Assembly (NCBI GenBank): GCA_963845755.1
Contig: CAWJTV010000009.1
Location: forward strand, 192,001 to 256,000
DNA from: an uncultured Planctomycetota bacterium
GTDB lineage: Bacteria; Planctomycetota; Planctomycetia; Isosphaerales; Isosphaeraceae
Reading direction: 5' to 3'
Length of the DNA stretch: 64,000 nucleotides
Shown here in pieces: positions 1-21,145 of the stretch. The translations under genes and the position numbers were made by a program. Every line of letters begins with the position of its first letter. Within the stretch, counting starts at the first letter, position 1. The notes under the pieces are model-generated. The model was not told where the DNA came from. It ran no database searches and saw only the letters and a program-made list of their open reading frames with translations.

Positions 1-524
1 GCGGTCCGCCTGGAATCACGAACAACGTGCGGTGCCAGGCTTCAAGGATGTCCTCGCCTACTGTCATCAAGATCGATTCGAGGTCGCCTTGACGTAACCA
101 CCCCACAAGCATCCTTTGCAGCTTGTCACGAGGGCGTTCATCGGGGTTGACGCGTCGGCGGGCGGGCGGTCTGGCAGCCTCTGGTGTATCGCCTCCCGAC
201 GCGATGTGCGCGGTCACGGCCTGCTCGACCGCCTGTTCGACCGCGGCGCGAAACCGCTGGTGAAGGCGGCGCGGCCTGAGTATCGTTGAACCCGTCAGCA
301 GCGGTCGCCCTCAGCTCCGAGATCTGGACTGGGATCACGACCCGGACCGGCGCGAAGACCTCGACGTCCTCACCCTCCGTCCAGAGTCCGTCGAGTTGCC
401 GCTCGAGCAACATCCGCAGCGCCGACACCGCCTCGCGCGCCAGCACGATGGGGTCGGCACCCCAACCCCAACCACTGGAGCGCACGATGCGTAGCCTGCA
501 GTGATGAATGACAATGTCAGGCAT
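1..524 (-). CDS. eCIS-associated large protein, probable tape-measure (Afp14-like) N-terminus; frameshifted, runs off the left edge
   Basis: ATG at 524 (MPDIVIHHCRLRIVRSSGWGWG). After a frame change an open frame (DERPRDKLQRMLVGWLRQGDLESILMTVGEDILEAWHRTLF) continues to base 1. It lies directly after the fibre genes. The product call is positional. Confidence 0.45.
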
Positions 525-543
525 AGTCAGGTTCGGCTCGGGT

Positions 544-1140
544 TCACGCCACTTTATAGTCAAAGACGTAAGGAAGCATATTCTGGATAAGAATGAGCAC
601 AAGGTAGATTCCCGTGGGCAGTGCCGGGAGTGCGACCAACGATACCCCCGAGGCCGGCGACAAGATGCCCGAGAGCGGGGACGGCCCTCCGATCATAGGA
701 GTTGACCCTGCCACGACGATGTAATACGGGTTCGGATCGGTCACCGGGAGTTTCAAGGTCGGGGCCGTAGTCGAGGTGACCGGCCCCCCCAGGATCGAGG
801 GAACGCCCATCGCCGTCAGGCTGCCGGGCCTGATCTGCGGAGTCGAGTTGCCAGTGGCCGGGTTCGGAAGCAGGACGGCATGGCCCCACGGGTAAGTCCC
901 AACGAGGCCAAAGTCAAAATCATTCGATAAGAGGTCACCCTGGGGGATCATGAACGAGCCGACGATGTCCGGTGCGGCCGTGGCGTTGTTCGCGGGGGCG
1001 CATACCGCGAGCACGTCACCGACGATCTTCGCGAGCGATGGCGACTGGCCTGAGATATCGTTGCGCGAGACTGCGGCGACGACGTGGCCCGTATTCTTGA
1101 CATACACGACGGTCATACTGCTCGGTTGGCTACCGTTCAT
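544..1140 (-). CDS. hypothetical eCIS protein (possible fibre accessory/chaperone)
   Basis: ATG at 1140 overlaps the stop of the upstream fibre-like gene (ATGA coupling). MNGSQPSSMTVVYVKNTGHVVAAV..., beta-rich. Confidence 0.6.
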   Translation of the reverse strand: MNGSQPSSMTVVYVKNTGHVVAAVSRNDISGQSPSLAKIVGDVLAVCAPANNATAAPDIVGSFMIPQGDLLSNDFDFGLVGTYPWGHAVLLPNPATGNSTPQIRPGSLTAMGVPSILGGPVTSTTAPTLKLPVTDPNPYYIVVAGSTPMIGGPSPLSGILSPASGVSLVALPALPTGIYLVLILIQNMLPYVFDYKVA

Positions 1141-2328
1141 GACGAACTCCCCTTGGCCGTGGATACGGCGATCACGATGAACTGGCATGAGCCTGCGACG
1201 TCGGTGCGCGTAATCGCGCCGCCCGCAAGCGTCAGGTATCTCACGAGGCAGTGGACGCGGCGGTGGTGGTCAACGTGGCAGTTCAGCGGCACGGCTGCGA
1301 AAGCCAAGGCAGGGGACGCGCCGGTGTTGATCTTGAGATCCGGAAGGATCGGAACCACATGGAAGTGGAGCTGGACCGTGCCTTGGGACACGTTGTCTTC
1401 GGCAACACCCGTCGGCAGCGGCAGGATGACGCCATCGGTCGCCACGCCCGACTGGACGCCTATGGACCCGGGAGGCAAGGCGGTGCCGCTCGTGAAACTG
1501 CCCTTGATGGTCAGGTTTCCCAGGTCGTCGATCTGGAGAAGCGGGGTGAGACCCCCGTGCCCATCGTCGGGACCGAAGGTCATCGTACCGTTGGGATCGT
1601 CGCCCTTCTCCTTCAAGAGGAGCATAAGCCTCGTGGCGGTCGTGCTCGTCTGGAGCTTGAGGGATCCGTCACGGGCCTCCACACGGTCGGCTTGTACGCC
1701 TGCGAGGCGTCGCGTGATTCCCTTGTCGTTATGGGTCCGCGCGTCGGTGAACTGGGATACCCCGTCCCACTTCACGAACCCGATCAGGATGTCCCAGGGC
1801 TTGTCGCTACTCAGCGGGTCGGTCGAATCAGCCGGGCCCGGAGTGGTCGAAAGGACCGTGGAGTTGTCCAACGGGCCTGGGGGCTGGAAGTTGAACTGGA
1901 CGTCTTCGGTCTCGCGTGTGGGAAGATCGGCCCCCGCGCAGGCCCCGGTCAGGGAGGCCTGAGTCACCGGCGTGGGGAGAGGTCCGCGAACGTAAACGGG
2001 ATACCACGGGTCCTGGCTCGCCGGGTCGTAAACGTGCGCCGATATGAACGTCGTCGGGTCGAGTACCGTGTCGCTGGTCAGCACAAGGTGACGGCCACGG
2101 CCGTCGATCGCGAGCCCCGCTTTGATTGTGACTTCCACATAGCTGGTCTGACTGGAGGTGGTCTTGGGTGTCGTGATGAAATCGAACCCGTAGGCGATTC
2201 CCCAGGAATGGAGGTACCGCTCGTGACGCGCCTGCTGGTCCCGCGCGTAGTCGAGCGACGCGCCCAGGTCGAACCGCTTTCAGGATCTGACCATCGTTGA
2301 AGATGGGACGCTGGATAGAATCACTCAT
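1137..2328 (-). CDS. eCIS tail-fibre-like protein 3 (one frameshift near 2270)
   Basis: Rejoined N-terminus IQRPIFNDGQILKAVDLGASLDYARDQQARHERYLHSWGIAYGF...AGLAIDGRGRHLVL matches the N-terminal motif of Afp13/fibre-like CIS proteins. Confidence 0.65.
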
Positions 2329-19819: not shown

Positions 19820-19835
19820 CGGTTTTCCTCACTCT

Positions 19836-20552
19836 CTAGGGGTTCGGGATGGTGATGGTCTTGGGATCGGTCAGGTCGTAGGGGAAGTTCAGTCTGATCG
19901 TGCCCGACTTGCCAGATGCCGGGTCCGTGGCCGTGACAGTAGTCGGTGTGGAGTGGTCGCCCCAGCGGAGCGGGAGGCGGAAGGCACCTCCCGGGTCTGC
20001 CAGCACGCGCGTTCGCTTCGGATCGACCGAATGTTCGAACGGCTCGACCGCGGTCAACAAAGCGACAACAGGTACACCCGAGGCCCTCTTCGCTTGTCCC
20101 CGGAGGAACGACGCAGCGCCCGGATAGGGGTAGTTGGCCTTGGGTACAAGGGTCAGTGTCACCATCAACGGCTTCAGCACCGTGAAGTCGCTTTCGTTAT
20201 CGTAAGGAGTCACGGGGAAGACGACGCCGAGCGACCCCAGCCCTCCGGGGTAGAGCGGAGCGTAGTACTGGGCAGTGATCAGGACTCGGTAGTTCTTGGG
20301 ACTCTCCGCCGGTGACGGCACCCGGCCACGACGTCCCAGATTCGGATAGGCCAGGATGCCTCTCCTGGTGAACAGCCCCCGCACCCTGGTAGCCGCCCAG
20401 ACGCCGGATCCCGGCGCGGTTTCGACCTCCAGCGTTGGGTTGATGAAGCCGATCGGGTCTTCGCCGGTGAAATCATCGATGAACGACAACCCTAACGGGC
20501 TGAAGACCAGCAGGTTGCCAAGGGGCAGGAATCCGGCCGGAATCGCGCTCAT
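19836..20552 (-). CDS. hypothetical eCIS protein, beta-sandwich/carboxypeptidase-regulatory-like
   Basis: Between DUF4255 and the sheath, translationally coupled; LxPxxxYPYP motif followed by LRGQ. Confidence 0.6.
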   Translation of the reverse strand: MSAIPAGFLPLGNLLVFSPLGLSFIDDFTGEDPIGFINPTLEVETAPGSGVWAATRVRGLFTRRGILAYPNLGRRGRVPSPAESPKNYRVLITAQYYAPLYPGGLGSLGVVFPVTPYDNESDFTVLKPLMVTLTLVPKANYPYPGAASFLRGQAKRASGVPVVALLTAVEPFEHSVDPKRTRVLADPGGAFRLPLRWGDHSTPTTVTATDPASGKSGTIRLNFPYDLTDPKTITIPNP

Positions 20553-21145
20553 GTCGTCCCTCCCGGAAGCAGGGACGACGCGAGCCTTCCGCTGCTGACC
20601 GATGCCGTGGTCTGGCCCAGCGTGACGTCGAGGGGGACCACGCGCACGCCGTACGCCAGCGACGTCCGGTAGGGGCGTTGCAGTGCATGCCAGATTCGCG
20701 TCCGTTCCTCCAAGGTCAGGGCATGGAGCGTCACCTTCAGCGAGGTCGGCGAACCGGCGAGCCCGTCTTGAAGCTGCGGGCCGCTCAGAATCGCCTGTTC
20801 GTAAAACAAGCGCAACACCCGGCCCAGTAACTTCTGGTCGCTGTCAAACTGCTTGGTCCATGGCGTGAACAAATAATTGAGCTGAAGGGCCATTGGGGGT
20901 TTCTGGATCGCGACGGCGTTATTCTGAGTCTTCCGGACCAGCGGCAGGTTGCGGGCACTTGGGTCTTCCATGACTTCGAACAGAAAGACCGAGAGGAGCG
21001 GCAAGGGCGGCGTCGGGTTGAGCGTCGGGTCCGACAGGTCGTTCAAGGCCGCGACCGTCTGGCCCGGAAACATGTCCCCGGCCCCTGCGTTGATGAACGC
21101 CACCAGCGTGTTCGATACGTCCAGGATGACGCCGGAATCGGCCAC
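20549..21145 (-). CDS. DUF4255 / Pvc16-Afp16-like cap (tail terminator)
   Basis: GTG 21145 with RBS gaggg. LSVFLFEVMEDPSARN...PPMALQLNYLFTPW...LLGRVLRLF...RIWHALQRPYRTSLAYGVRVV. Confidence 0.9.
   Translation of the reverse strand: MADSGVILDVSNTLVAFINAGAGDMFPGQTVAALNDLSDPTLNPTPPLPLLSVFLFEVMEDPSARNLPLVRKTQNNAVAIQKPPMALQLNYLFTPWTKQFDSDQKLLGRVLRLFYEQAILSGPQLQDGLAGSPTSLKVTLHALTLEERTRIWHALQRPYRTSLAYGVRVVPLDVTLGQTTASVSSGRLASSLLPGGTT

Follow-up and report, generated by a model that had tools for sequence, protein, structure and literature searches.

The window, a stretch of 64,000 nucleotides from an uncultured planctomycete of the family Isosphaeraceae, carries 19 co-oriented genes on its minus strand, which run from a cap gene starting at position 21145 to the left edge at position 1. 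They belong to an operon of ~31 kb counted from the cap gene, ~10 kb of which lies beyond the left window edge. The genes encode, in order, the cap, a cap-adjacent protein, a sheath-tube-sheath-tube series, a Cis6 plug, a LysM-bearing Cis7, hub, spike and gp25, followed by Cis11a, Cis11b, Cis12, three Cis13-like fibres, one unclassified protein and a tape-measure candidate. This is a complete phage-tail-like toxin syringe set in a soil planctomycete, of a kind known from other bacteria. The features are listed below from right to left.

22523..23326, minus: 267-aa single-copy protein, candidate regulator; weak winged-helix match (AbiEi_4, E 0.0025, below cut-off)
21361..22207, minus: papain-family (xylellain-like) cysteine peptidase, split over two frames (PDB 3ois_A)
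21146..21360, minus: non-coding stretch upstream of the cap gene, GC 55% vs ~64% around; probable operon promoter region
20549..21145, minus: Cis16/Afp16-type cap (tail terminator), ~198 aa from GTG at 21145 (Pfam Pvc16_N)
19836..20552, minus: conserved cap-adjacent protein, 238 aa, C-terminal transthyretin/CarboxypepD_reg-like beta-sandwich; ATGA overlap with cap
17304..19819, minus: sheath 1 (Cis2a), 838 aa counting a base missing after 18858 (Pfam sheath domains)
16814..17278, minus: inner tube protein 1 (Cis1/Cis5-like), 154 aa (Phage_T4_gp19, 2e-39)
15207..16817, minus: sheath 2 (Cis2b paralogue), 536 aa (Phage_sheath_1 and Phage_sheath_1C)
14716..15210, minus: tube protein 2 (adaptor-like), 164 aa, GTGA-coupled start (Phage_T4_gp19, 2.1e-30; CIS5_fam, 6.2e-23)
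14508..14702, minus: small Cis6/Afp6-like protein (spike plug) (NF045895 'tail_region', 1e-18)
13827..14511, minus: Cis7 tube initiator with C-terminal LysM, frame broken near 14235 (CIS_tube)
12654..13800, minus: baseplate hub (gp27-like half of VgrG), frame broken near 13160-13170 (VgrG_rel, phrog_52)
11893..12657, minus: spike (gp5-like OB fold and helix), separate gene, ATGA-coupled to hub (Phage_base_V, 1.4e-28)
11482..11889, minus: gp25-like sheath initiator, Cis9 (GPW_gp25, 8.6e-20)
9444..11482, minus: Cis11a (gp6/Baseplate_J wedge), frame breaks near 11340-11430 and 10981-11070 (TIGR02243, Baseplate_J)
7415..9447, minus: Cis11b (second gp6-like paralogue), frame breaks near 8551-8640 and 7771-7860 (TIGR02243)
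5331..7418, minus: Cis12 (gp7-like wedge), 695 aa (Tail_P2_I domain, 2.1e-10)
4073..5323, minus: Cis13a, fibre-like, 416 aa (CIS13_fam N-terminal domain, 5.2e-13)
2325..4022, minus: Cis13b, fibre-like, ~565 aa (CIS13_fam N-terminal domain, 4.2e-13)
1137..2328, minus: Cis13c, third fibre-like paralogue, break soon after ATGA-coupled start (N-terminal likeness to Cis13a/b)
544..1140, minus: 198-aa protein, ATGA-coupled to Cis13c, one hydrophobic C-terminal segment
1..524, minus: 5′ part of a ~660-aa gene (ORFs) running off the left edge, directly upstream of the ATPase

An earlier note on this DNA had counted 19 co-oriented genes with a right boundary at 21145; our gene map gives the same number, and the GTG at that position is in frame and consistent with the start of the cap alignment. 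Owing to frame breaks, a plain ORF list gives more pieces than genes. Overlaps make up 10 of the 18 gene junctions (nine ATGA/GTGA, one TGATG) and the rest are gaps of 3-50 nt, so that 'mostly stop/start-coupled', as the genes had been described, is fair wording.

Components of the injection apparatus

All the components previously named from the letters (cap, sheaths, tubes, LysM, hub, spike, gp25, wedges, tail-I and fibres) were recovered with Pfam and NCBIfam, and the proposed assignment to contractile injection systems (CISs) is supported as membership of the Afp/PVC-related superfamily. Pfam domains fall in ORFs at 17304-18788 and 15207-16817 (sheath), 16814-17278 and 14716-15351 (gp19 tube), 13827-14511 (CIS_tube and LysM), 11893-12657 (Phage_base_V), 11482-11889 (gp25) and 5331-7418 (Tail_P2_I), with two further matches to Baseplate_J. 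NCBIfam matches comprise VgrG_rel (hub and spike), TIGR02243 (twice), CIS12_fam, the CIS13_fam N-terminal domain (twice) and 'tail_region', and every core protein has phage tail homologues in PHROGs.

The cap is the sole Pvc16_N match in the genome (E 7.9e-34, ORF range 20549-21364), and has PDB matches to Anabaena All3327 (4.8e-8) and a Streptomyces Pvc16_N protein (6.4e-7). Positional counterparts of the cap-adjacent protein align in a Gemmataceae MAG contig (L024), in two genomes of the same family (G013 and G011) and in G037; the protein has no sequence match in Pfam, PDB or NCBIfam. Its AF2 model, confident only at residues ~148-238, gave Z scores of up to 9-10 to transthyretin-like domains and no CIS-specific match in a fold search. 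The best PDB match of sheath 1 is Halogeometricum Cis2 (9ezm, 1.2e-96), followed by the Streptomyces CIS (8bky/8bl4, 9e-85), Pvc2 (5e-56), Afp3 (8e-51), AlgoCIS (9e-47) and the Anabaena CIS (3e-45), with pyocin (2e-18) and T4 gp18 (1e-6) remote. Sheath 2 is 34% identical to sheath 1 across 210 aa, and tube 2 is 37% identical to tube 1, which matches TIGR02241, CIS5_fam and CIS1_fam, all under the equivalog cut-offs (NCBIfam).

The Cis6-like protein, for which a spike-plug role has been described (excerpts of Weiss et al.), is 48% identical to its L024 homologue. The spike covers positions 368-542 of the VgrG_rel profile (NCBIfam) and is likewise a separate ORF in L024 and G013. The ATG of Cis11a at 11482 overlaps the gp25 stop. 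Cis11b and Cis11a are 28% identical as proteins and show no nucleotide similarity, which rules out an assembly duplication. Cis12 matches CIS12_fam (6.8e-35) and TIGR02242 in NCBIfam, and PDB 9gtp_E (7.8e-7). Judged from sequence, a predicted CIS13 N-terminal domain is common to the three fibre paralogues, with matches far under the equivalog cut-off (at most 49 bits vs 370 bits; CIS13_fam, NCBIfam). Cis13b is 32% identical to Cis13a in 136 N-terminal residues, and the N-terminal region of Cis13c matches Cis13a at E 2.8e-7 and Cis13b at E 9e-5; the start of Cis13a is preceded by an RBS-like GGAG. The 198-aa protein has no match in Pfam, PHROGs or NCBIfam. The gene at the left edge is a tape-measure (Cis14) candidate by position only; its ORFs lie in three frames (L001:2027 to 43), and it has a weak Atlas lead (0.78) and no Pfam match. 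PF19268 (CIS_TMP) is absent from the whole-genome search.

The earlier note had guessed that an ATPase and cargo lie beyond the left edge, and inspection of the adjacent DNA located candidates for both. A predicted AAA+ ATPase is encoded ~2-3.7 kb to the left, its WHD and its VCP/CDC48-like AAA part in adjacent overlapping ORFs; relatives have both in single ORFs of 718 aa (G037) and 730 aa (G013). The likeliest cargo candidate is a ~810-aa polymorphic-toxin-like protein encoded after the ATPase. Its helical region is rich in Ala, and it further has four hydrophobic helices, a linker rich in Pro and a C-terminal domain that is exchangeable. One homologue (P0001, 944 aa) is 88% identical within the aligned region and has a different C-terminus, another (P0002, 806 aa) has the same C-terminus as the candidate, and a third (P0003) has yet another. 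Three membrane proteins are also encoded after the ATPase and might serve as anchors instead of being cargo or immunity proteins. Toxin candidates have been reported at the 3′ end of such loci (excerpts of Geller et al.), and the operon described here is alike.

Occurrence and related systems

The proposed planctomycete host is upheld by 76 PSD1 matches in the genome (vs none in 14 control genomes), by the window's PF07638 ECF sigma factor and Rhodopirellula-type transposase, and by the Gemmataceae label of the nearest CIS relative. The genome is large and was judged probably Gemmataceae-like in this analysis. Of 400 other planctomycete genomes sampled, 44 have the cap marker, and occurrence is therefore not rare. 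Two sheath genes are found in 22 of the 86 locus pieces examined, to which G013, G011 and G037 contribute two pieces each, and paired Cis11 has been named in haloarchaea in the accessible literature; the 'distinctive architecture' of the earlier note was thus overstated. Its statement that no functional characterisation of a planctomycete CIS is known agrees with our literature search, which found no paper on one.

The closest loci are the uncharacterised ones of L024, G013 and G011, in which gene order from cap to spike is identical to that in the window. L024 proteins are 38-66% identical to their counterparts, and in a sheath tree built without Afp/PVC reference sequences sheath 1 and sheath 2 are sister to the respective L024 sheaths at 98* and 100*. 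G013 and G011 have the same two-sheath, two-tube layout, but unlike the window they contain a single Cis11 gene and a DUF4157 protein inside the locus, and G013 encodes its ATPase on the opposite strand.

Among characterised systems, that of Halogeometricum borinquense ('archaeal T6SS', clade IIa) supplies the best solved sheath match, and its accessible description lists cis1-16-type genes including Cis11a, Cis12, Cis13, ATPase and cap (Zachs et al. 2024, PMC11566945). The starred clade that holds the window sheath also includes the haloarchaeal ones. In contrast to the window, the accessible text recognises no Cis6 plug; the tape measure is also unrecognised there (PMC11566945). The system is bound to the cytoplasmic membrane, with a putative six-helix anchor encoded upstream (PMC11566945, accessible text), and no comparable ORF was seen here. 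The window also has two sheath genes vs one in each of three haloarchaeal loci fetched. Streptomyces coelicolor CIS-Sc (type IId) gives the second-best sheath match, and Cis12 and the cap match its entries 9gtp and 9gts. Its wedge contains two Cis11 per Cis12, parallel to Cis11a and Cis11b here, and it acts in the cytoplasm (PMC12237407, in part). According to the same partial source, fibres are missing from CIS-Sc, which depends on the bitopic membrane protein CisA, encoded at the usual fibre position, where the window has three fibre-like genes. Streptomyces-type sheaths form a clade (98*) separate from the window sheath.

The systems proven to be extracellular, Afp of Serratia, PVC of Photorhabdus and AlgoCIS of Algoriphagus, have in common with the window the tube, sheath paralogues, LysM tube initiator, spike, gp25, Afp11/12 wedge, Afp13 fibres, Afp15 ATPase and Afp16 cap. 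Their spike is a fused VgrG-like protein. The operon of the window opens with the cap gene, encodes hub and spike separately and contains no DUF4157 gene. Their sheaths are less similar to that of the window, and they have one Cis11 per wedge, as far as the accessible accounts go, vs Cis11a and Cis11b here.

Integrity and mode of action

Nine apparent gene splits affect sheath 1, Cis7, hub, Cis11a (two), Cis11b (two), Cis13c and the tape-measure candidate. In sheath 1, the N-terminal part matches phrog_23 in a different frame. The CIS_tube profile of Cis7 is divided between one ORF (22-75) and the next (98-152 and LysM), and residues 12-99 and then 100-233 of its 234-codon L024 homologue align across the break. 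The VgrG_rel profile of the hub is shared by two ORFs (38-185 and 188-349), TIGR02243 matches of Cis11a (35-91 and 294-647) lie in different frames, as placed with a frame plot, and those of Cis11b (8-289, 321-548 and 574-641) in three. The L024 homologues of sheath 1 and hub are single frames of 846 and 433 codons, and sheath 1, Cis7 and hub are each a single ORF in short-read-assembled relatives. Short-read contigs of runs X1 and X2 (depth 3.1 and 3.4) both have a further C after 18858, with which the sheath 1 gene reads through for 2517 nt or 839 codons; this is the one break directly shown to be erroneous. The remaining breaks are read as errors because of the genome-wide error rate and the intact relatives. 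Most simply, then, all nine are assembly frameshifts and no sign of decay.

We consider it rather probable that the locus encodes a complete, probably functional, Afp/PVC-related CIS ('eCIS-type', lineage-II-like) for which an extracellular mode is likeliest. That it is instead a decaying relic, its frame breaks real inactivating mutations, could be argued from at least nine breaks in 21 kb of operon, the adjoining IS-rich region and the lack of a sheath match in a same-genus genome (G001). This is highly improbable, as breaks are equally dense in rpoB (split at profile position 632/634), rpoC (three frames) and PSD1 domain copies (at least 12 of ~61 split, by table reading), with ~1 frameshift per 3 kb genome-wide vs nine in 21 kb here; contigs of two runs contradict one break directly, no in-frame stop codons were seen inside matched parts, and codon-position GC bias is strong through every piece. 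Still more far-fetched is a myovirus prophage tail module or R-type tailocin, to which the PHROGs tail homologues of all core proteins and the nearby transposases and peptidase might point. The locus has a Pvc16_N cap, WHD and AAA ATPase, Cis6 plug and Cis12, its sheath is much nearer to CIS sheaths than to those of pyocin or T4, and head genes are absent within 62 kb. As the earlier note had stated, capsid, portal, terminase and T6SS membrane-complex genes are absent from the window (none in the 42 kb rightward), and none, TssJLM families included, occur in the 20 kb to the left, where head or terminase genes would have indicated a prophage. PF05065 and PF04860 (capsid, portal) have no match in the genome, and Terminase_6N matches are confined to contigs C28, C37 and C11. 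Membership of a T6SS is rejected, since the genome has its complete TssA-B-C-E-F-G-Hcp-VgrG-K-M-L cluster elsewhere, on contig C20. Counting against the favoured reading, the genome (88% complete) yielded no PAAR match and none to the tape-measure family. The locus is a real and probably intact CIS.

Whether such a CIS leaves the cell is a separate matter. The earlier premise that a DUF4255 cap with head-less tail genes defines an extracellular system is not supported, as the same gene set builds membrane-bound haloarchaeal T6SS-like, cytoplasmic Streptomyces and thylakoid-anchored Anabaena CISs, according to accessible accounts. Action without release, either membrane-bound and contact-triggered, firing outward as in the haloarchaeal system or T6SS subtype iv, or inside the cell as in Streptomyces and Anabaena, is possible but doubtful. 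In the PDB, the two sheaths that match best belong to systems that are not extracellular and outrank those of every proven extracellular system, and the sheath tree places the window in a starred 62-row clade with haloarchaeal sequences. In partly accessible sources, Cis11 is paired in the Streptomyces wedge and 'Cis11a' is named in haloarchaea, and the membrane-bound haloarchaeal system too has Cis13, so that fibres are compatible with this mode. No holin/endolysin release cassette was recognised in the window or the 20 kb to its left, and the ATPase gene is followed by genes for hydrophobic proteins with several helices. Against this, three fibre-like genes stand where Streptomyces, in the accessible text, has CisA. 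The haloarchaeal anchor, in its accessible description, has six helices and is encoded upstream; here, neither the core nor the DNA upstream of it holds an ORF predicted to have four or more TM segments. The window sheath falls outside the CIS-Sc clade, and a canonical T6SS is already available for contact-dependent delivery. Given the three fibre genes, the likeliest mode appears to be release followed by action outside the cell, at somewhat better than an even chance.

By analogy with solved relatives, an extracellular particle of this kind would start from a baseplate that nucleates tube polymerisation along the tape-measure protein, for which the gene upstream of the ATPase is the candidate. 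Sheath 1 would make up the contractile sleeve, with specialised layers the probable place of sheath 2 and tube 2. The cap would terminate growth, and the ATPase would assist assembly or cargo loading. Binding of the fibres to a target would then lead to baseplate opening and sheath contraction, which would drive spike, tube and cargo into it.

The C-terminal half of the cysteine peptidase encoded upstream of the cap gene matches PDB 3ois_A ('cysteine protease') at 3.2e-16 and Peptidase_C1 weakly (E 0.099); the fetched loci of relatives gave no match to the peptidase at E<1e-4. The 267-aa protein further upstream has no paralogue in its own genome, and the G037 CIS operon has a homologue of it (42% identity) at its 5′ end.

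Gene content and class of the operon

By its gene content, the operon is a genuine contractile injection system (CIS), complete and in all probability intact. Gene calls combined codon-position GC with Pfam, PHROGs and NCBIfam searches, and starts and stops were read at each junction. The resulting map is a run of 19 minus-strand genes from 21145 to 1, and it bears out the parts list, the gene count and the right boundary at 21145 proposed in the earlier note.

Genes of the operon within the window (coordinates, strand, product)
20549-21145, minus: cap
19836-20552, minus: conserved protein of 238 aa, function unknown, between cap and sheath 1
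17304-19819, minus: sheath 1
16814-17278, minus: tube 1
15207-16817, minus: sheath 2
14716-15210, minus: tube 2
14508-14702, minus: Cis6-like plug
13827-14511, minus: Cis7 with LysM
12654-13800, minus: hub
11893-12657, minus: spike
11482-11889, minus: gp25
9444-11482, minus: Cis11a
7415-9447, minus: Cis11b
5331-7418, minus: Cis12
4073-5323, 2325-4022 and 1137-2328, minus: three Cis13-like fibre genes
544-1140, minus: unknown
1-524, minus: 5′ part of a gene running off the left edge

Neighbouring genes overlap at start and stop at 10 of the 18 junctions and are separated by 3-50 nt at the other eight. Two alternative calls were rejected: a long overlap between tube 2 and sheath 2, suggested by the ORF list and by alignment with L024 (a CIS locus on a Gemmataceae MAG contig), was dropped for a GTGA-coupled start at 15210, and GTG 21364, which would have coupled the cap to the peptidase gene, was given up as cap start in favour of GTG 21145 on the basis of sequence and alignment start.

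Several components merit comment. Of the 86 locus pieces examined, 22 carry two sheath genes. The hub and the spike are encoded separately in the window, in L024 and in the same-family genome G013, and because the three differ in their stop/start configurations, the split is real. The wedge proteins Cis11a and Cis11b share 28% identity and no nucleotide similarity, and are old paralogues. In two of the fibre genes an N-terminal domain of about 80 residues alone matches CIS13_fam (E 5e-13; 49 bits, the cut-off being 370 bits), and the third fibre-like gene is related to these two. The 238-aa protein next to the cap is found at the same position in five planctomycete loci; its AF2 model, built from a 5-row alignment, has a mean pLDDT of 47.6 and is usable over the last ~90 residues, which match a generic transthyretin-like sandwich in fold comparison. 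No PAAR gene was detected anywhere in the genome (87.9% complete), as against one inside the CIS locus of G037, a genome of a different planctomycete family.

In the part of Geller et al. (2021) covered here, an extracellular CIS (eCIS) is defined operationally by ten or more core genes, by the presence of one or more of Afp12/13/14/16, and by exclusion of phage, T6SS and pyocin. This one locus holds two tubes, two sheaths, Cis7, hub and spike, gp25, two Cis11, Cis12, ATPase and cap. The eCIS-specific core genes are represented by Pvc16_N (117 bits, cut-off 27) and Tail_P2_I (41 bits, cut-off 20.6; both Pfam), and the AAA+ ATPase (Afp15/Cis15) by WHD and AAA domains encoded to the left of the window.

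The rival classes can be weighed against the same data. For a prophage, the earlier note had pointed to head or terminase genes next door; capsid, portal and terminase families were found neither in the 42 kb to the right of the operon within the window (23-64 kb) nor in the 20 kb to the left. PF05065 and PF04860 have no match in the whole genome, and its Terminase_6N matches lie on other contigs, with none on contig C9, of which the window is the stretch 192001-256000. The locus is not a prophage. Nor is it part of a T6SS: TssB/C, Hcp and TssJLM, the last of which the earlier note had likewise reported missing, are all absent from it, and a separate complete canonical T6SS, with TssA, B, C (twice), E, F, G, Hcp, VgrG, K, M and L, is located on another contig (C20:667353-692800; loci L104 and L111). 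An R-type tailocin or myovirus tail was considered and rejected, the pyocin sheath (2e-18) and T4 gp18 (1e-6) matching far less well than a CIS sheath (1e-96) and both cap and ATPase being present. Nowhere else in the genome is there a Pvc16_N cap or a phage-type sheath gene.

Matches of sheath 1 in a PDB search (E-value)
Halogeometricum borinquense Cis2 (9ezm): 1.2e-96
Streptomyces CIS (8bky, 8bl4): 9e-85
Pvc2: 5e-56
Afp3: 8e-51
AlgoCIS: 9e-47
Anabaena CIS: 3e-45
pyocin: 2e-18
T4 gp18: 1e-6

Frame breaks as probable assembly errors

Nine frame breaks were counted in the 21 kb of operon within the window. The genome itself is assembled at 14.27 Mb in 49 contigs (87.9% complete, 3.3% contaminated, GC ~64%). 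In five genes (sheath 1, Cis7, hub, Cis11a and Cis11b) profile coordinates run on from one frame to the next, as in Cis7 (CIS_tube 22-75, then 98-152), the hub (VgrG_rel 38-185, then 188-349) and Cis11b (TIGR02243 8-289, 321-548 and 574-641). Similar breaks affect housekeeping genes: rpoB (C34:79366-83015) occupies two frames, cut at profile position 632/634 within a universally conserved motif, and rpoC (C34:567489-571586) is spread over three. Copies of the planctomycete-specific PSD1 domain, which has 76 matches in this genome and none in 14 control genomes, are split in at least 12 of about 61 cases. The rpoB, rpoC and PSD1 samples each show roughly one break per 3 kb. Since rpoB and rpoC cannot be pseudogenes and are broken at the same density, the splits in the operon are most simply explained as assembly errors.

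Sheath 1 (846 codons), Cis7 (234) and the hub (433) are single frames in relatives assembled from short reads. Two soil-metagenome sequencing runs, both belonging to one study, yielded short contigs that agree with the window at 99% or more. In both, at the low depths of 3.1 and 3.4, there is an additional C following position 18858, which falls within the interval deduced for the sheath 1 break. No insertion or deletion was listed at the other breaks, where coverage by these contigs is uncertain. With this C, sheath 1 measures 2517 nt, or 839 codons. Intactness is thus shown for sheath 1, and the other broken genes are probably intact as well.

Completeness is strikingly low in several same-family relatives assembled in few contigs, such as one contig at 58%, which fits error-prone long-read assemblies. 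This assembly, and apparently several such relatives, carry about one frameshift per 3 kb, and automated annotation will shatter or miss loci of this kind in frameshift-ridden long-read assemblies. The locus matters mainly as a warning in this respect, and as a way into a phylum so far unstudied.

Flanking genes, candidate cargo and DUF4157 genes

The gene that starts at 524 and leaves the window encodes about 660 aa in three frames and lies directly upstream of the ATPase. This is the position of Afp14/Pvc14, on account of which it is regarded as a tape-measure candidate. It has no recognisable Pfam family; the tape-measure family PF19268 (CIS_TMP) has no match in the whole genome, and tblastn of its three pieces against all fetched loci returned nothing below E 0.6. 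An Atlas comparison gave a weak lead (0.78) to a cluster, 52% of whose members have CIS_TMP.

The earlier note had supposed that an AAA ATPase and cargo genes might lie beyond the left edge, and the ATPase is indeed found there.

ATPase in the stretch left of the window (L002)
L002:17746-18837 and L002:16286-18028, 2-3.7 kb left of the window: ATPase in two overlapping ORFs (WHD PF22977; AAA PF00004)

Its AAA part is VCP/CDC48-like. In G037 and G013 WHD and AAA are joined in single proteins of 718 and 730 aa, unlike the two ORFs seen here. After the ATPase come a putative 252-aa ORF and a protein of about 810 aa in two frames, comprising an extended helical region rich in Ala, four hydrophobic helices, a linker rich in Pro and a C-terminal domain of ~140 aa. 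Full-length relatives of 944, 806 and 553 aa keep the helical and membrane parts and have differing or swapped C-terminal domains. As predicted from sequence, this architecture is that of a polymorphic toxin, and eCIS toxins usually have their genes at the operon's 3′ end, according to the part of Geller et al. (2021) covered here. Given this combination of architecture and place, we infer that the ~810-aa protein is the best candidate for the cargo of the system. The expectation of cargo on the left was thus answered by a candidate without a toxin family match: its C-terminal domain has no Pfam hit, and Atlas scores of at most 0.89 lead to no family.

On the 3′ side of the candidate cargo follow an FGE-sulfatase-domain gene, two small membrane proteins and then a TPR gene on the opposite strand, along with metabolic genes. 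FGE-sulfatase-domain genes recur in the genome, one being this gene downstream of the candidate cargo (L002:12182-13477, minus) and another standing next to, or fused with, a protein kinase in the vicinity of the T6SS (L112:4502-7043, plus).

Upstream of the cap, a 215-nt stretch (21146-21360; 55% GC) is likely to be the promoter region of the operon.

Genes upstream of the operon and in the rest of the window
21361-22207, minus: cysteine peptidase of the papain family, interrupted by a frame break (C-terminal half: PDB 3ois, 3.2e-16)
22523-23326, minus: single-copy 267-aa protein with a weak winged-helix hit
23993-26466, minus: Ser/Thr kinase (632 aa, kinase domain 335-590) and coupled PF07638 ECF sigma factor, upstream of the CIS
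26486-28114, 29543-30781, 33866-35248, 47468-50048 and 50012-54019: IS-rich stretch with several split ORFs (transposases IS66-like, Rhodopirellula-type ISAZ013, DDE_Tnp_1, DDE_3)
38060-40267, 41038-45741 and 61309-63787: housekeeping neighbours (transketolase; HlyD-MFS-OEP efflux set; cytochrome bd oxidase subunits I and II)

The peptidase has no hit at E<1e-4 in the fetched loci of relatives. A homologue of the 267-aa protein, 42% identical to it, opens the G037 CIS operon (L016:15965-16636, minus), and the 267-aa protein may be a CIS-linked regulator. Pairs of Ser/Thr kinase and ECF sigma factor are common in planctomycetes, so that connecting this pair with regulation of the CIS would be a guess only. 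The HlyD and MFS genes of the efflux set overlap in different frames, another assembly break being the probable cause.

DUF4157 (eCIS_core), a metallopeptidase-like domain, is a frequent though not obligatory eCIS marker. No gene for it (PF13699) lies on C9, and 12 are present on other contigs (13 matches over the cut-off at E<=1e-5).

DUF4157 loci (seven)
C20:667353-676628
C36:321072-326527
C19:143635-145626
C31:316806-318179
C11:877130-877966
C33:213194-215083
C29:332689-333503

The 12 genes share an N-terminal motif and a Pro-rich linker and have variable C-terminal regions. At most three DUF4157 matches each were found in 40 relatives, and in three of these (G011, G013 and G015) the gene is in or beside the CIS locus rather than elsewhere as here. 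Four tandem DUF4157/'eCIS_core' genes stand directly upstream of the C20 T6SS on the same strand; the eCIS-marker domain thus adjoins a T6SS in this genome.

Relatives, site of action and distribution

When 185,579 species genomes were scanned with a pattern, 608 stretches matched, 603 of which encode relatives; the best 80 of these 603 include Bacillota, Myxococcota and Actinomycetota as well as archaea and further groups. Closest to the locus is a relative on a contig that bears the label Gemmataceae bacterium, from which a family-level placement of the host may be drawn. This relative, the PSD1 matches of the genome and, in the window, the PF07638 ECF sigma factor and the Rhodopirellula-type transposase mark the host as a planctomycete. 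A quick maximum-likelihood tree computed from 106 C-terminal regions of sheaths, a comparison that the earlier note had proposed against known eCIS subtypes, places sheath 1 as sister to L024 (98*), within a weakly supported group (83) of two-sheath loci from Zoogloea, Flexivirga, Pleionea, Rubrivivax, a Kofleriaceae MAG, one Streptomyces, G013 and G011. This group is nested in a starred clade of 62 rows together with Bacillota, haloarchaea, methanogens and G037. The subtype would be expected in lineage II, close to IIa. Streptomyces CIS-Sc-type sequences and G015 form a separate clade, and two Planctomycetota MAGs group with Myxococcota. Planctomycete sheaths accordingly occupy at least four places in the tree, which argues for several acquisitions. 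The paralogous second sheaths are long-branched, and their placement is therefore unreliable.

The earlier note had taken a cap with head-less tail genes to define an extracellular system. This rule fails, as gene content is not decisive: the haloarchaeal, Streptomyces and Anabaena systems are not extracellular. In the covered parts of the respective papers, the haloarchaeal CIS is bound to the cytoplasmic membrane and mediates contact-dependent killing (PMC11566945), the Streptomyces CIS is cytoplasmic and requires the membrane protein CisA (PMC12237407), and the Anabaena CIS is anchored to thylakoids (PMC8894136). For the present system, release and extracellular action are nonetheless slightly favoured. 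Three fibre-like paralogues with a CIS13-type N-terminal domain are placed where Streptomyces has CisA, a hydropathy scan shows no multi-helix membrane protein upstream of or within the core, and a separate T6SS is available for contact-dependent work. The nearest solved sheath relatives are, however, the haloarchaeal and Streptomyces systems; Cis13 is also present in the former (PMC11566945, in the part covered), and the locus has no recognisable lysis cassette and has membrane proteins downstream.

Comparison with these two relatives bears on the same question. Haloarchaeal clade IIa has a conserved six-helix membrane protein (Hbor_38620-like) beside the cluster, to which the window was compared by hydropathy only; that scan found ORFs with at least four helices only downstream (the candidate cargo and two small proteins), and none upstream of or within the core. 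Streptomyces type IId lacks fibre genes and has a bitopic CisA-like protein downstream of the baseplate genes, whereas the window has three fibre-like genes downstream of Cis12 and a sheath outside the Streptomyces clade. Cis11a, Cis11b and Cis12 parallel the Streptomyces wedge with its two Cis11 per Cis12. It seems rather unlikely that the system fires from inside its producer, membrane-bound or cytoplasmic like its two closest characterised relatives, alongside the separate T6SS and with membrane-helix polymorphic toxins, possibly including the products of the 12 dispersed DUF4157 genes, an unusually large set, as payload. Were this so, the locus would represent a further cell-bound CIS mode in a phylum of unusual cell architecture, and one effector family would be common to two contractile systems.

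CIS deliver toxins between microbes and are under development as programmable protein-delivery tools. The planctomycete CIS described here is a further example of an already known type of system. The earlier note knew of no functional characterisation in this phylum, and in agreement with this a full-text literature search found no paper on a planctomycete CIS. Within the supplement parts covered, the operon table of Geller et al. (2021) includes at least two Planctomycetes operons, both from Candidatus Brocadia, those of Chen et al. (2019) name planctomycetes in the scanned-genome list only, and a catalogue of receptor-binding domains (PMC12923769) contains neither 'Planctomycet' nor 'Gemmata'. 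The phylum is thus nearly absent from the published CIS surveys checked, in contrast to the occurrence of the cap marker in 44 of the 400 further planctomycete species genomes that were sampled. Together with sheaths at four or more places in the tree, this points to an unexplored reservoir and to repeated acquisition. Of 40 related genomes, 5 have relatives detected with the sheath query (same family, 4 of 24; same genus, 0 of 1), and the cap family, with this genome included, is found in 26 of 243 high-quality genomes and in 33 of 288 genera.
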